A stretch of DNA of 64,000 bases. Origin: Syntrophales bacterium (GTDB taxonomy: Bacteria > Desulfobacterota > Syntrophia > Syntrophales > UBA5619). The position numbers were made by a program, and so were the translations under genes. Of this stretch, positions 2,647 through 54,005 are shown in pieces (positions within the stretch are counted from its first letter, which is position 1; the number at the start of each line of letters is the position of its first letter). The notes below the pieces were generated by a model. It saw only the letters and a program-made list of their open reading frames with translations, ran no database searches and was not told the origin of the DNA. The stretch is taken from positions 207 through 64,206 of the forward strand of contig JAURXV010000156.1 of NCBI GenBank assembly GCA_030654195.1, read 5' to 3'.

Positions 2647-3474
2647 ATGAAGAAAATCAGCATCGGTGGTTTCGAGGTCGGTGGGGGCGCTCCCCTTGTG
2701 CTCATCGCCGGTCCCTGCGTGATCGAGGATGAAGAAAAGACCATGGAGATTGCCCATGATCTGAAGGGGCTGACGGGGAAGCTTGGCGTCCCGTTCATAT
2801 TCAAGGCCTCTTACGACAAGGCGAATCGGACCTCCCGCGACGCCTACCGCGGACCAGGTTTGACCCGAGGCCTTGAAATTCTGAAGAGGATCCGGGATGC
2901 GTTCGCAATCCCCGTTCTCTCCGACGTCCATCGCTTTGAAGAGATCGCTCCGGCAGCGGCCGTCCTCGACGTCCTGCAAGTCCCGGCCTTTCTCTGCCGG
3001 CAGACCGACTTTATCGTCGAGATCGCCCGCCGGGCGAAGGTGGTGAACATCAAAAAGGGGCAGTTTCTCGCCCCATGGGATGCCGTCCATATCGCCGAGA
3101 AATCCGCGGCGGCCGGAAATCATAACATCATGCTGACAGAGCGGGGGGTCAGTTTCGGTTACAACAACCTGGTCGTCGATTACCGTTCCTTCCCGATTCT
3201 GCGAGCGACGGGATATCCGGTCATTTTTGATGCCACGCACAGCGTCCAGCTCCCGGGCGGGGCCGGCAATGCCTCGGCGGGAGACCGCCGGATGGTCCCC
3301 TGTCTTGCCCGGGCGGCGGTGGCGGCCGGGATCGACGGCCTGTTTGTTGAAGTTCATCCAAACCCGGACTGTGCGCTCTGCGACGGGCCCAATTCCCTGG
3401 CCCTGGACAGCCTGCCGGAGCTTCTCGCGACGCTCATGAAGATCGATGCGGCGGTGCGTACAAAACAGGACTGA
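2647..3474 (+). CDS. kdsA: 2-dehydro-3-deoxyphosphooctonate (KDO-8-P) aldolase/synthase
   Basis: Translation has LVLIAGPCVIE, FKASYDKANRTS and FDATHSVQLPGG, as in KdsA. RBS GGAGGGGA lies upstream of ATG 2647. Confidence 0.93.
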   Translation: MKKISIGGFEVGGGAPLVLIAGPCVIEDEEKTMEIAHDLKGLTGKLGVPFIFKASYDKANRTSRDAYRGPGLTRGLEILKRIRDAFAIPVLSDVHRFEEIAPAAAVLDVLQVPAFLCRQTDFIVEIARRAKVVNIKKGQFLAPWDAVHIAEKSAAAGNHNIMLTERGVSFGYNNLVVDYRSFPILRATGYPVIFDATHSVQLPGGAGNASAGDRRMVPCLARAAVAAGIDGLFVEVHPNPDCALCDGPNSLALDSLPELLATLMKIDAAVRTKQD

Positions 3475-3502
3475 ATCTGTCCAATTTGAAATGAGGGGTA
3501 AC

Positions 3503-4066
3503 ATGGCTGAAGAAGTGACCGAAGAGAGACTTCTGAACAAGATCCGCAGGGTGAAACTACTGATCCTGGATGTGGATGGGGTTCTGACCGATGGCCGGAT
3601 CGTCATCGACGATGCGGGGCTGGAGAGCAAGCAGTTCGATGTAAAGGACGGCCATGGCCTGAAAATTCTGATGAGATACGGAATCGGCGTGGCGCTGCTG
3701 ACCGGAAGGCGATCACGCGTGGTCGAACACCGCGCCGCCGATCTGGGGATCACCGAGGTTCATCAGGGGATCCGGAACAAGACCGAAGCCTTTGAGGAGA
3801 TTCTCAACCGGAGGCAAATCGCCCCGGAGGAGACGGCCTGTGTCGGGGATGATGTGGTGGATATCCCGCTCCTCAGGAGGGCAGGGTTTTCCGTGGCTGT
3901 GGCCGACGCCGTATTGGAGGCCCGGCAGATCGTCGATTATGTAACGTATCATCCTGGAGGCCGGGGGGCTGTTCGGGAGGTGTGCGAAGTGATCCTCAAG
4001 GCACAGAACCGATGGTCGGATGTGGCCGTGAGATATGAATTTGCGTGCTCTGGGGGACAGATTTAA
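3503..4066 (+). CDS. kdsC: KDO-8-phosphate phosphatase (HAD superfamily)
   Basis: HAD motif I LLILDVDGVLTDG and motif GDDVVDIPLL; KdsC-sized; sits next to kdsA and lptC. The last codons and the stop lie inside a 40-nt palindrome. Confidence 0.88.
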   Translation: MAEEVTEERLLNKIRRVKLLILDVDGVLTDGRIVIDDAGLESKQFDVKDGHGLKILMRYGIGVALLTGRRSRVVEHRAADLGITEVHQGIRNKTEAFEEILNRRQIAPEETACVGDDVVDIPLLRRAGFSVAVADAVLEARQIVDYVTYHPGGRGAVREVCEVILKAQNRWSDVAVRYEFACSGGQI

Positions 4067-4084
4067 ATCTGTCCCCCAGAGCAC
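4045..4084. repeat. Perfect 40-nt palindrome GTGCTCTGGGGGACAGATTT/AAATCTGTCCCCCAGAGCAC (GGGGACA...TGTCCCC family)
   Basis: Read directly: 20-nt arms with no loop. The central TTTAAA contains the kdsC TAA stop (4064-4066). Confidence 0.9.
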
Positions 4085-4086
4085 AG

Positions 4087-4113
4087 GAGGACACGCTGCG
4101 GCATCATGTCCCC
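4087..4113. repeat. 27-nt palindromic unit, degenerate copy (GAGGACACGCTGCGGCATCATGTCCCC)
   Basis: Two substitutions relative to the 27-mer GGGGACACGATGCGGCATCATGTCCCC found at 7764, 17973 and 24545. Confidence 0.8.
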
Positions 4114-4197: not shown

Positions 4198-4249
4198 GGG
4201 GGACATGATGCGGCATCATGACGGGGACACGATGCCGCATCATGTCCCC
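4198..4249. repeat. Tandem/nested 1.9-copy of the 27-nt palindromic unit
   Basis: GGGGGACATGATGCGGCATCATGAC followed by GGGGACACGATGCCGCATCATGTCCCC. Deleting 24 nt would restore a single perfect unit. Confidence 0.85.
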
Positions 4250-4255
4250 GGTGAG

Positions 4256-4846
4256 ATGAAGACAAAAAGAAAAACGGTGCTCATCGTCGCGATCCTTGCG
4301 GTGATTCTGTCCCTGGCCGTGATTTTCGTGATCGGCCTCAGGGTGGCGCCGGAAAAGGCGCTCCTGAAGATCATGGCGGACAAGGTTGACCTGCAGATCA
4401 AAAATGTCCGTTATACGGAGGTCGGGGATTCCGGCATGAAATGGGAGATCACCGCGGATACGGCGCGCTATCTGAAGAAGGAGAACCTGGCCCTCTTTGA
4501 GAAGGTGTCGGTCCGGCTGGTGATGAAGGACGGTCGGACCTTCGTGATGAACGGCGATCAAGGGCGGCTCGATACCCAGTCGCGGGACATGGAAATCGAC
4601 GGGAATGTCGGCATCGTTTCGGGAAACGGGGATCGCTTTGCGACGGACCGTCTTCGGTACCGGAATGCCGCCCGACGGATCGAAACAGACCAACCCGTCG
4701 CGATGGAAAACGGGAATGTCCGAATCAGCGGCGTCGGGATGATCTTTCATCTGGACGAGAGCAAGCTAACGCTGCTTTCGCAGATTCGGGCGAGCTCTGG
4801 GGACACCTTGCCGCAAGGTGTCCCCAAATGGGGGCAGGGAAAATAA
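4256..4846 (+). CDS. lptC: LPS export system protein LptC-like
   Basis: Single N-terminal TM helix (TVLIVAILAVILSLAVIFVIGL) followed by a beta-rich periplasmic domain. Position kdsC-[this]-lptA-lptB. Start is uncertain: in-frame ATGs at 4205/4208 lie inside the repeat. Confidence 0.7.
   Translation: MKTKRKTVLIVAILAVILSLAVIFVIGLRVAPEKALLKIMADKVDLQIKNVRYTEVGDSGMKWEITADTARYLKKENLALFEKVSVRLVMKDGRTFVMNGDQGRLDTQSRDMEIDGNVGIVSGNGDRFATDRLRYRNAARRIETDQPVAMENGNVRISGVGMIFHLDESKLTLLSQIRASSGDTLPQGVPKWGQGK
4799..4825. repeat. 27-nt palindromic unit, CCTTG subtype (GGGGACACCTTGCCGCAAGGTGTCCCC)
   Basis: Perfect 12-bp arms with loop CCG. Lies in the last 16 codons of lptC and 22 nt upstream of the lptA ATG. 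Confidence 0.88.
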
Positions 4847-7716: not shown

Positions 7717-7791
7717 GGGGGACACGCCCAGCGATCTGGGGGACATGATGCTGCATCGTGCAGGGGGACACGATGCGGCATCATGTCCCCC
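7717..7791. repeat. Composite of three GGGGGACA-initiated units ending in a full 27-nt palindrome
   Basis: GGGGGACACGCCCAGCGATCT, then GGGGGACATGATGCTGCATCGTGCA, then GGGGGACACGATGCGGCATCATGTCCCCC. Positions 7764-7790 are identical to the ligA and hemW copies. Confidence 0.88.
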
Positions 7792-8851: not shown

Positions 8852-9724
8852 ATGAGGCCCGTAACGGTAAAAGAAATCCTGACATATGGGGAGAGACTTG
8901 GGATTACGGAAATGGTGGAACCTCCCGGCGCCCGTGGATCCGTCCGTCATCTGCTCCGGTATGCCGGGGGGGAATCCGGTCATGGCATGACGCCCTTCCC
9001 GCACTCCATGGTGATCATTCCGCGGACCGCGGCGGATGGGGCTTATGAAAACGGATGGAACAGATCTGTTCCCCCATCGCTCTTGCGGAATATCACCTGT
9101 TTGGCCCTGTCTGCGCAAAGGATAACCGTTTTTCTTCGGCAATTTTCGGAACGGACGGAGACGCCCATCTTTTCGTCGTGCTACGACGATTCATTGCTCC
9201 ACAGCCGTCTGACCGGCCTGCTCCGGGAGAGGGGTGAGCGGCAGGTCATGGTCCATGGCGTGCTCGTCCGGGTTTGGGGTCTCGGCGTTCTGCTCCTGGG
9301 TGAAAGCGGGATCGGAAAAACCGCCTGCGGTCTTGCCCTCATGGGCAAAGGCAATCGCTGGGTGGCGGATGATGCCGTCGTGCTGGAGGGAAGGGGAGAC
9401 GCCGTTTATGGGCGGGGCCATCAGAGAACCGCGGGGCGGATTGCCGTGCGGGGTCGGGGGGTTCTCCGTGCGGCAGATCTGCTCGGAATGGGGCGCCTCC
9501 TTCAGGAAACCCGTGTGGACGTGCTCGTCCGGCTTGTCCGTCGGTCTGAAAGAAATGCAGTACAAAAAGGAGAGTCATTTCAAGAGATTGTTGGAGTCTC
9601 TCTCCGCTGCAGAGATCTTGCGGCGGACGTTGATCCCCGGCGGGTGGCCGAACGGGTGACGGGTTATATTCACCCTCTTTCGGTCAAATCATCGGAAAAC
9701 ATAGTGCTGAGGACTGAGTGCTAA
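8852..9724 (+). CDS. hprK: HPr(Ser) kinase/phosphorylase
   Basis: P-loop GESGIGKT and an HprK C-terminal domain. ATG at 8852 follows AAGGGG. The ORF's 3' end runs into the heptamer repeat. Confidence 0.82.
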   Translation: MRPVTVKEILTYGERLGITEMVEPPGARGSVRHLLRYAGGESGHGMTPFPHSMVIIPRTAADGAYENGWNRSVPPSLLRNITCLALSAQRITVFLRQFSERTETPIFSSCYDDSLLHSRLTGLLRERGERQVMVHGVLVRVWGLGVLLLGESGIGKTACGLALMGKGNRWVADDAVVLEGRGDAVYGRGHQRTAGRIAVRGRGVLRAADLLGMGRLLQETRVDVLVRLVRRSERNAVQKGESFQEIVGVSLRCRDLAADVDPRRVAERVTGYIHPLSVKSSENIVLRTEC

Positions 9725-9810
9725 GTGCTGAGTAAAACATAGTGCTGAGTGTAAAAAAAAGTGCCAAGTACCGAGTGCCGAGTGCTAAGTGCTAAGTCCT
9801 CAGTACTATG
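9700..9810. repeat. Tandem heptamer array (TGCTGAG/TGCTAAG/TGCCGAG...) enclosed by a 16-bp inverted repeat
   Basis: About 12 heptamer units read directly, split by AAAACAT and an A8 run. Outer arms are CATAGTGCTGAGGACT and AGTCCTCAGTACTATG. Confidence 0.85.
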
Positions 9811-9835
9811 TACATCCGGACAAAGGGGGATCCGA

Positions 9836-17324: not shown

Positions 17325-18644
17325 TCAAATCAGGGCCAGGCTGTCGGCGACGGCCATCCCGGCGCGCGTCGGCCGGAGAAATCCGTCGCGGATCTCCAGG
17401 AGCCCTTCCCCGGAGAGCCTCACGATCATATCCCGTTTGTCCGCGAGAAGATCCCGGCCGTAGCGGATCTTGAACGTCTCCAGGCAGATTCCCCGGCGCG
17501 TCCGGAAGCCGAGAAAGAGCGCCTCCAGACGGAGTTGTTCGTCATTCAGGATCTCCCTCGACTCGACCGGTTCCCGCCCCGATTCCAGATCGCCGATGTA
17601 GGCGTCGACGGAGCTGCGGTTCCAGCGACGCTCGCGCCCCGAAAAAGAGTGCGCGGCGGGACCGAGGCCCAGATAGGGGACGTGGCTCCAGTATTTGCGG
17701 TTGTGCCTCGATTCCCGGCCGGGGCGGGCGAAATTGGAGACCTCGTAATGGCGATAACCGCTCTCTTCCAGGATTTGAGCCGTCCTGAGAAAAAAGTCGG
17801 CCTGACGTGATTCACCGGGGAGGATGAGTTCGCCGAGTCGGCATCGCTTTGCGAGGGGGGTTTTCTCCTCCAGCGTGAGTTGATAGCAGGAGAGGTGGTC
17901 GGGATCGAGGCCGATGGCCGTATCCAGCGTGGCAAGCCATGTTGCAAAGTTGCGGTCCGCTTCCGTGCAAATGGGGACACGATGCGGCATCATGTCCCCA
18001 TTTGCTCCTCCTGCGGGGGAAGAGGGAAGACCGTAGATCAGATCCAGACCGATGTTCACGAAGCCGGTGTCGCGCACCTGTTGGATGGCGCCGATCGCCT
18101 GAAGGGCCGTATGGCGGCGGCCCAGCAGCGCAAGCGAATCGTCGTCGAAGGACTGGACGCCGATGTTCAGGCGGTTCACACCGGAGCGACGGAGCGACGC
18201 GAGGAGCCCTTCGGTGATGTCGGCGGGATTCGCCTCGACGGTGATCTCCGCGCCGGCTGCGATCGTAAAAGCGGTCCGGATGTCGGCGATGAGCCCTTCC
18301 AGATCCTCCTCAGGCAAAACGGAGGGTGTTCCCCCGCCGATGTAGAGCGTATCAAAAGAGGCGGCCCACCCCCGGTAGAGCGCCATTTCCCGGCGTAGGG
18401 CCGACCGGTAGGCGGGGATAAGGGAAAGGTCGGTGATGGAATAGAAACCGCAGTAGGCGCATTTCCGGAGGCAGAAGGGGATGTGGATGTAGAGCCCCGG
18501 GAGTTCATCCGGTTCCGTGGATTGTTCCGACGGACCTTTCCCCGTTGTCGGAGGCGTTTCTTCAGAAATTCGCCCTGCTGAGAAATCTAAAGAATCCCTT
18601 GGAAAGAATCCCGTTCCCGCGGTCTGAAAAGCCGGTCCGCTCAT
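17325..18644 (-). CDS. hemW: Radical SAM heme chaperone HemW / HemN-like (oxygen-independent coproporphyrinogen oxidase family)
   Basis: LYIHIPFCLRKCAYCGF (CxxxCxxC) and a HemN_C-like C-terminus. ATG 18644 overlaps the lepA stop as ATGA. Contains an in-frame palindromic element. Confidence 0.85.
   Translation of the reverse strand: MSGPAFQTAGTGFFPRDSLDFSAGRISEETPPTTGKGPSEQSTEPDELPGLYIHIPFCLRKCAYCGFYSITDLSLIPAYRSALRREMALYRGWAASFDTLYIGGGTPSVLPEEDLEGLIADIRTAFTIAAGAEITVEANPADITEGLLASLRRSGVNRLNIGVQSFDDDSLALLGRRHTALQAIGAIQQVRDTGFVNIGLDLIYGLPSSPAGGANGDMMPHRVPICTEADRNFATWLATLDTAIGLDPDHLSCYQLTLEEKTPLAKRCRLGELILPGESRQADFFLRTAQILEESGYRHYEVSNFARPGRESRHNRKYWSHVPYLGLGPAAHSFSGRERRWNRSSVDAYIGDLESGREPVESREILNDEQLRLEALFLGFRTRRGICLETFKIRYGRDLLADKRDMIVRLSGEGLLEIRDGFLRPTRAGMAVADSLALI
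17967..18005. repeat. Intragenic copy of the 27-nt palindrome (core 17973-17999), extended to a 39-nt palindrome by GCAAAT/ATTTGC
   Basis: Core is identical to 24545-24571 and 7764-7790. It is 39 nt, or 13 codons, read as [13 protein letters not shown] in hemW. Confidence 0.9.
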
Positions 18645-24144: not shown

Positions 24145-24250
24145 CCCCTCCCTTGACGGGAGGGGGGCAGGGGGAGGGTGAAGCAACAACTTGGCGTCTT
24201 CGTGGTAACTTTTCCCCCCACCCTAACCCTCCCCCGCCAAAGGGGAGGGG
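24145..24250. repeat. G/C-run-rich interspersed element, copy 1 (inverted relative to 28707-28814)
   Basis: CCCCTCCCTTGACGGGAGGGGGGCAGGGGGAGGGTGAAGC...CCCCCCACCCTAACCCTCCCCCGCCAAAGGGGAGGGG. Both ends match the reverse complement of the 28.7-kb copy. Confidence 0.85.
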
Positions 24251-24268
24251 ATTGATTTGAGCTTGTAT

Positions 24269-26356
<2,088 letters not shown>

Positions 26357-28673: not shown

Positions 28674-28706
28674 TATATGGAGGTAATCGCAAAAGTACCA
28701 ATAAAT

Positions 28707-28814
28707 CCCCTCCCCCCGGGCGGGGGTGGGTTAGGGGGGGGGGGGGAGGTTGCCATGCAATCAGCATGTTGCAGCTTCACCCACCCCCTAACCCCCTCCC
28801 GTCAAGGGAGGGGG
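28707..28814. repeat. G/C-run-rich interspersed element, copy 2 (contains a G13 homopolymer at 28734-28746)
   Basis: The reverse complement aligns with 24145-24250 at both ends. The central roughly 30 nt diverges. Confidence 0.85.
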
Positions 28815-42374: not shown

Positions 42375-42379
42375 CAAAA

Positions 42380-42448
42380 GGACTAAGTGCTGAGTGCTAA
42401 GTGCTGAGTGTTTTTCTTCTCAGTCCTCAGTCCTCAGCACTTGCTTTT
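42380..42448 (+). terminator. Heptamer-repeat hairpin, probable terminator of rubrerythrin
   Basis: GACTAAG-TGCTGAG-TGCTAAG-TGCTGAG, loop TGTTTTTCTT, then CTCAG-TCCTCAG-TCCTCAG-CACTT followed by GCTTTT. The 24-position stem has 3 mismatches and 2 G-U pairs. Confidence 0.5.
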
Positions 42449-45114: not shown

Positions 45115-45190
45115 GTCAGGAGTGAGGAGTGAGGAGTCAGGAGTGAGGAGTGAGGAGTGTTTTTCACCTCACACCTCACTCCTCACTTTT
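45115..45190 (+). terminator. Heptamer-repeat hairpin terminator after mutS (GAGTGAG/GAGTCAG units)
   Basis: (GTCAGGA/GTGAGGA)x6, loop GTGTTTTTCA, then CCTCACA-CCTCACT-CCTCAC followed by TTTTT. Lies between the convergent mutS and gspE-like genes. Confidence 0.6.
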
Positions 45191-53978: not shown

Positions 53979-54005
53979 GGGGACACCTTGCGGCAAGGTG
54001 TCCCC
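53979..54005. repeat. 27-nt palindromic unit, CCTTG subtype (GGGGACACCTTGCGGCAAGGTGTCCCC)
   Basis: Perfect 12-bp arms. Differs from 4799-4825 only at the central base. Intergenic between pyrR and pyrB. Confidence 0.88.

Follow-up and report, generated by a model that had tools for sequence, protein, structure and literature searches.

The window (the whole 64,000-nt stretch analyzed here) encodes the radical-SAM heme chaperone HemW on the minus strand at 17325–18644. The protein exceeds the cut-off of the NCBIfam HemW model TIGR00539 (257 bits versus 205.4) in one continuous match, residues 96–467, that passes through the insert described below. The start codon is the ATG at 18644–18642, which overlaps the stop of lepA as ATGA. 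This overlap fixes hemW as 17325–18644, encoding 439 aa; a 484-aa ORF starting with GTG was set aside for it. The gene calls of relatives have hemW arranged likewise. In HemW, C59, C63 and C66 (CxxxCxxC radical-SAM motif) are invariant, as is G104–P108 (GGGTP). Homologues bear PF04055 and PF06969, and HemN_C downstream of the insert stays in frame. An AlphaFold2 model (63 homologues, 440 residues) has a mean pLDDT of 82.5; to either side of the insert, pLDDT exceeds 85. The gene model assumed in the earlier note on this DNA is therefore sound: a single HemW match spans the insert, HemN_C remains in frame, the flanking pLDDT is high, and the start forms the ATGA overlap.

Residues 214–226 of HemW are encoded by a 39-nt palindromic element at 17967–18005 (minus strand), GCAAATGGGGACACGATGCGGCATCATGTCCCCATTTGC. 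By direct reading, 18 of its 19 pairs about the central G are complementary. The flanks GCAAAT/ATTTGC had been described as extending the element to a palindrome of 39 nt. The length is correct, and the symmetry is near-perfect rather than perfect because one pair, C·A at positions 14 and 26, is mismatched; in the minus-strand mRNA this pair becomes a U·G wobble. The minus-strand codons are GCA AAT GGG GAC ATG ATG CCG CAT CGT GTC CCC ATT TGC, and GDMMPHRVP is the core peptide of the 13-residue insert. The conserved 27-nt core, GGGGACA-CGATGC-G-GCATCA-TGTCCCC, occupies 17973–17999 and is identical to 7764–7790 and 24545–24571. Read directly, it lacks stop codons in five of the six frames, and its perfect form lacks them in all six. 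In the mRNA sense, the 39-nt copy forms a hairpin with an 18-bp stem and a 3-nt loop (−35.1 kcal/mol, z = −6.9). The copy has no T tract, only ATTTGC lies 3′ of the stem, and a terminator scan was silent, which ruled out an intrinsic terminator. An Rfam scan of the window at the gathering score returned two tRNAs only and no family for the element.

The element lies within a larger extra loop at 17940–18023 (minus strand), which consists of SSPAGG, the element and TEADRNFAT and is located between the strand DLIYGLP and the next helix. A phmmer alignment to HemN (1OLT) pairs query residues 254 and 283 with 217 and 224, so that about 22 residues are extra in the HemW loop. In the AlphaFold model, the insert sits between strand E199–205 (DLIYGLP) and helix H229–246. 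The element corresponds to residues 215–227 in the numbering of the 440-residue model, and pLDDT falls below 50 for residues 212–220 and 222–226 in the same numbering. On the basis of this model, the element is predicted to add 13 residues to a disordered surface loop of HemW. No insert is present in roughly half of the 120 closest HemW homologues (the 392-aa type), whose sequence here is G[VIL]PGQ-xM-xxWL, and HemN agrees with them. The extra loop that the earlier note had recognized after GLP is thus absent from HemN 1OLT and from about half of these homologues, and these comparisons agree with its expectation that the HemW family does not conserve this segment. Of the approximately 22 extra residues, 13 are encoded by recognizable element.

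Allowing up to 3 mismatches, the core matches the window 9 times when each strand is counted, compared to 0.00 expected from 100 shuffles, a density of 8–9 copies per 64 kb. The ligA copy (24545–24571, minus strand; gene 24269–26350) has an identical core and encodes GDMMPHRVP in the linker between the HhH and BRCT domains. Agreement of the hemW and ligA cores had been claimed previously and extends to 27 of 27 positions; the shared phase and orientation are likewise borne out, since both copies read GDMMPHRVP. On the plus strand, a truncated 22-nt copy followed by a full copy with an identical core (7764–7790) occupies 7739–7790, in the rpoN–hpf spacer, and ends 29 nt before the ATG of hpf. 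A diverged plus-strand copy with 2 mismatches (4087–4113) lies in the spacer between a HAD/KdsC-like gene and lptC, and a truncated copy followed by a full copy with a central C (4223–4249) occupies 4199–4249 (plus strand), just upstream of the lptC start. The composite copies at 4199–4249 and 7739–7790 share a “1.8-mer” layout, in which a 22-nt copy ending before TCCCC is followed after 2–3 nt by a full copy. This layout points to slippage or to nested copying at the hairpin.

Two further copies, at 4799–4825 (plus strand) and 53979–54005, belong to a sister subfamily with the inner stem CCTTG/CAAGG and have the form GGGGACACCTTGCSGCAAGGTGTCCCC. The first falls in frame within the C-terminal tail of LptC, which is 16 aa long: the LptC Pfam match stops at residue 214 of 230, and the last 16 residues, SGDTLPQGVPKWGQGK, are partly encoded by the element. 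The lptC ORF ends a few bases from the likely lptA start. The second copy lies in the spacer between pyrR-like and pyrB-like genes. All copies in the window other than those in hemW, ligA and the LptC tail are intergenic. A palindrome with a 14-bp stem, GCTCTGGGGGACAGATTTAAATCTGTCCCCCAGAGC, was also noted at 4045–4084, extending across the stop codon of the HAD/KdsC-like gene (3446–4066). It has GGGGACA/TGTCCCC arms and a different center, ATTTAAAT, and could represent an additional subfamily or act as a terminator.

Close relatives of hemW, gathered by individual protein look-ups (a metagenome scan gave few close loci), differ in the presence of the element. One gene (L190, GCA_041643015.1) shares 95.8% nucleotide identity with the window gene outside the loop and is without the element, reading ...GCAGCGGGGGAAACCTCC/CCGGAAGTG... 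at the element's place; another (L191), 96.1% identical, has it. The comparison of close relatives proposed in the earlier note therefore yields both a filled and an empty state. No target-site duplication is visible at the hemW element when the window is compared to relatives, L190 included. The loop codons of L190 differ from those of the window more than the remaining gene does, so that a clean insertion footprint is not discernible, and allelic recombination may be a cause of the empty and filled states.

The element is found at the same hemW position, with different flanks, in L187, L192, L075 and L188. A second site in the same loop, 7 nt past the Pro codon, is occupied in L188 and L189. 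In hemW of L188 (GCA_049315695.1, a Syntrophales MAG), the stretch 3733–3939 contains a pair of identical 27-nt cores separated by 68 nt; they have one orientation but different frames, which give 10-residue and 11-residue readings. The string GHDAASCP was considered as a sign of the opposite orientation; this was rejected, as the DNA shows the same orientation and another frame. More element-like fragments (CCGCATCGGGGG) lie between the two cores. The loops of other relatives have inserts of 12 aa, about 30 aa or about 60 aa with GGGG...CCCC-like fragments, and alleles of 404 aa have GGGGGAAACCTCCCC, a small GGGGA/TCCCC palindrome, at the element site. The HemW loop is thus a permissive site, with insertions at two or more positions followed by partial decay. 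The ligA gene of L187 is occupied by the element at the same site as in the window. The view that hemW and ligA are independent cases thus stands within this genome and does not extend to L187, which shares both; for the same reason, these insertions are old rather than recent.

GGGGACANNNTGCSGCANNNTGTCCCC was scanned against one genome per species. The element is present in at least 18 MAGs, at a minimum of 106 loci, and forms a REP-like dispersed family with the consensus GGGGACA-N3-TGCSGCA-N3-TGTCCCC. By record labels, the MAGs belong to Syntrophaceae/Syntrophales/Deltaproteobacteria, Elusimicrobia, ‘Ca. Poribacteria’ and unclassified lineages. Three inner-stem subfamilies (CGATG/CATCG, CCATG/CATGG and CCTTG/CAAGG) are distinguished by paired changes on both arms. 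Among the matches listed, 95 of 119 copies show complementarity at each of the three free pairs; the exceptions are mostly T·G or C·A, as in the window. The palindrome of many copies runs 8–11 bp into AT-rich flanks (e.g. cttaattc-core-gaattaag and gaaaatt-core-aattttc), and the GCAAAT/ATTTGC of hemW is a short form of such extensions. The flank consensus is T-A/T-A-T-T-C before GGGG, the length ranges from 27 to 45 nt, and the stem from 12 to 20 bp. Neither flank composition nor core contains a GTAG or CGTC tag. Both orientations are represented among the copies, which are spread over unrelated genes and spacers. The window subtype CGATG..CATCA was also found in 11 IMG/VR contigs classed as viral (L193–L203), with palindromic flanks specific to each copy. 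These carriers could be a vector if they are true phages; the alternative is that they are host fragments. Literature searches with the sequence strings of the element gave no relevant match.

About three quarters of the listed copies lie outside long ORFs. A stop-to-stop ORF heuristic placed 37 of 145 listed copies in long open frames, a figure that is too high because the heuristic over-calls (the window copies at 7764 and 53979 are intergenic); only Pfam-verified genic copies were therefore counted. These Pfam-checked, in-frame copies are located in the linker between DNA_mis_repair and MutL_C of MutL (L094), past the synthetase domain of GlyS (L041), in the linker joining both ABC domains of a two-domain ABC ATPase (L106), between domains of a molybdopterin oxidoreductase (L095), between the Fer4_8 and CCG domains of a CCG-domain protein (L072), and, as two copies, in a PPDK_N protein (L009). 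RimO of an Elusimicrobiales MAG (L046) has a copy in frame inside its TRAM domain. The genic copies use all three reading frames, and the family is tolerated widely in protein linkers and loops. The L095 ORF (1046–3604) reads GDILPQGVPPNIMMPHRVPSH, in which a complete copy from one subfamily leads directly into a partial copy from a second, and each is in frame.

The 39 nt in hemW, which belong to a repeat family, lie in frame within an extra disordered loop and are polymorphic among near relatives, probably represent a dispersed hairpin repeat of the REP or RPE kind that has lodged in a tolerant loop of HemW and is translated without a HemW-specific role. A copy of the element would have entered the surface loop after the DLIYGLP strand, presumably by transposition-like or recombinational copying. 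Since its length is a multiple of three and the frame used is free of stops, it would simply be translated. HemW with 13 added residues in a disordered loop would remain functional, and the element would persist in hemW because it is tolerated there. We infer that the hemW element is translated and roughly neutral.

A search for a mover was conducted by tblastn, using as queries E. coli RAYT, IS608 TnpA and a RAYT-like ORF (L148). No valid match to a RAYT or IS200-type transposase was obtained in 1.36 Mb of element-bearing loci plus the window. The L148 match is an unrelated locus, the gene matched in L046 is RimO, and the L040 match overlaps a copy of the element. The ORFs between close-set copies in L040 and L010 were considered as transposases and are ordinary genes.

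The core shows an unusual degree of conservation within hemW. It is identical at 27 of 27 positions in six orthologous genes, and in four of the six, the rest of hemW is only 81–85% identical and the codons adjoining the core differ. The naive chance of such identity, calculated from the hemW identities with shared ancestry ignored, is 0.3–1.4% per pair. Judged by these alignments, conservation of the core in hemW exceeds the expectation for plain junk; this counts against a merely tolerated repeat, as do the lack of a mover in the loci searched and of a visible target-site duplication. Symmetric double changes were also observed (GCAAAT/ATTTGC versus GTAAAT/ATTTAC, and GGGGACA/TGTCCCC versus GTGGACA/TGTCCAC). 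Both the invariance and the symmetric changes would be compatible with selection for the hairpin, with gene conversion between copies, or with fold-back template switching. The core peptide is changed and the palindrome broken in some orthologues, such as P0003, P0009, P0011 and P0031; the constraint on the core is therefore not absolute.

Such conservation could mean that the hairpin is a selected cis-acting structure kept in hemW, either as an mRNA stem that stabilizes the message or slows the ribosome at loops and domain boundaries, or as a DNA or RNA site for a host factor. The high stability of the stem is in keeping with this explanation, as are the invariance of the core in diverged orthologues whose neighboring loop codons vary and the paired changes that preserve the palindrome. 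The verified genic copies are at interdomain linkers, which would suit an effect on translation; however, tolerance predicts these positions equally. We consider a cis-acting role in hemW unlikely, given that close relatives and most of the family are without the element, that copies occur in either orientation, all three frames, and unrelated genes and spacers, and that residue changes in some orthologues, those named above among them, break the palindrome. The lack of an Rfam match and of a terminator-like T tract also argues against it.

The palindrome could instead be kept, and its arms symmetrized, without a transposase by fold-back template switching or gene conversion, with new copies arising by recombination or templated repair. 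This process would be consistent with the copy-specific palindromic flanks (ggcaat/attgcc, gattat/ataatc and gcaaat/atttgc), with the symmetric double changes between subfamilies and orthologues, and with the finding of neither a transposase nor a target-site duplication. The small palindrome of the 404-aa alleles (GGGGGAAACCTCCCC), located at the element site, also favors it. However, the spread of an identical 27-mer to many unlinked sites in several phyla is left unaccounted for, and the process is concerned with maintenance more than origin, so that it is compatible with a dispersed selfish repeat; as a rival to the latter, it is decidedly improbable. That the insert is missing from mature HemW, either through decay of hemW to a pseudogene or through bypass or excision of the hairpin in the RNA, is an idea prompted by a hairpin unusually strong for a coding region, with no direct support, and is hardly credible: the ORF is intact, a confident fold flanks the insert, and every orthologue keeps the insert in frame and free of stops, with the L188 copies each open in their own frame, none of which excision would need.

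The preferred reading, a dispersed repeat tolerated in HemW, has precedents. Intragenic REPs, often in replication or repair genes, are documented (PMC3733652, PMC10969869). The element has the short (20–40 nt) imperfect palindrome and the many dispersed, mainly intergenic copies of a REP. Like the GTAG- and CGTC-tagged REPs (Di Nocera et al. 2013, PMC3733652), it forms stem-loops of 20–40 nt in many, mostly extragenic copies. A minority of both are wholly inside ORFs, in frame, and often in replication or repair genes (here, LigA and MutL), and dimers or partial tandems are seen in both (PMC3733652). The element differs from the tagged REPs in the absence of GTAG/CGTC, in its longer stem (12–20 bp) and 3-nt loop, and in that no RAYT was found nearby (PMC3733652).

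The occurrence of Rickettsia RPEs in frame in genes is established, as cited in PMC10969869 and PMC3733652. As far as they are described there, RPEs are, like the element, palindromic repeats found in frame in unrelated housekeeping genes, where the fold tolerates an added surface peptide. The element shares the in-frame genic insertion of RPEs (HemW, LigA, LptC tail, MutL, GlyS, RimO and others) and does not share their length: in the accounts given by these two sources, RPEs are about 100–150 bp and confined to the obligate intracellular Rickettsia, whereas the element is 27–45 nt and found in environmental MAGs labeled as several phyla. The element thus acts like REPs and RPEs, yet departs from each in family-specific features (for REPs the tag and, in the loci searched, a RAYT; for RPEs the far greater length).

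Coxiella QMITEs (PMC5896051) and the ERIC, BOX and Correia elements referred to in PMC10969869 resemble the element as small non-autonomous repeats able to fuse in frame with host ORFs. MITEs measure 50–500 bp and have both terminal inverted repeats and target-site duplications, whereas the element is one short palindrome with no visible duplication. Its unit is a single palindrome, with flanks that are inverted rather than direct repeats, which sets it apart from MITEs.

A further comparison is with the terminal inverted repeats that flank genes of RAYT-like ‘TIRYT’ transposases and share GGGGWSAS (PMC3733652). Some of these are self-complementary and form moderately abundant families, and the start of the element, GGGGACAC, fits GGGGWSAS (PMC3733652). 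The likeness is only 8 nt, however, and no TIRYT gene was seen adjoining any copy. The putative connection between the element and TIRYT may serve as a lead. A bolder proposal is that GGGGACA...TGTCCCC defines an undescribed, cross-phylum class of tiny mobile hairpins, whose symmetry and identity are actively kept, whether through fold-back templating, gene conversion or the action of an unrecognized enzyme of the HUH or ‘TIRYT’ type reading the GGGGWSAS-like arm. Such hairpins would be preferentially retained at loops and linkers, where an mRNA stem of about −35 kcal/mol may modulate translation. We regard this proposal as rather unlikely.

The hemW case is a real, small-scale instance of the known lodging of selfish palindromic repeats in housekeeping genes. 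The known intragenic palindromic repeats thereby gain an untagged, apparently transposase-less family, which, by record labels, is common to Syntrophales-like, Elusimicrobia and other uncultured lineages. At a single loop, the orthologous HemW genes form an allelic series, with empty, singly occupied and doubly occupied states (the last in different frames) alongside decayed remnants, which constitutes a clean natural experiment on insertion tolerance. For annotation, such repeats account for odd lineage-specific loops in housekeeping proteins and should not be taken for functional motifs; MMPH in a heme chaperone such as HemW is a tempting false lead.

Other repeats were noted in the window. 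Inverted repeats at 24145–24264 and 28693–28814, 4.4 kb apart, have arms of 106 nt that are 73% complementary and rich in C and G runs (e.g. CCCCCCACCCTAACCCTCCCCC and GGGGGTGGGTTAGGGGGGGGG). The first arm lies just downstream of ligA, and this repeat family is distinct from the palindromic element. Intergenic hairpins at 9696–9811, 42378–42448 and 45141–45185 consist of runs of AGTGCTG/AGTGCTA heptamers facing CTCAGTC/CTCAGCA, with a TTTTT loop. They are another dispersed repeat type, with a possible role as terminators.
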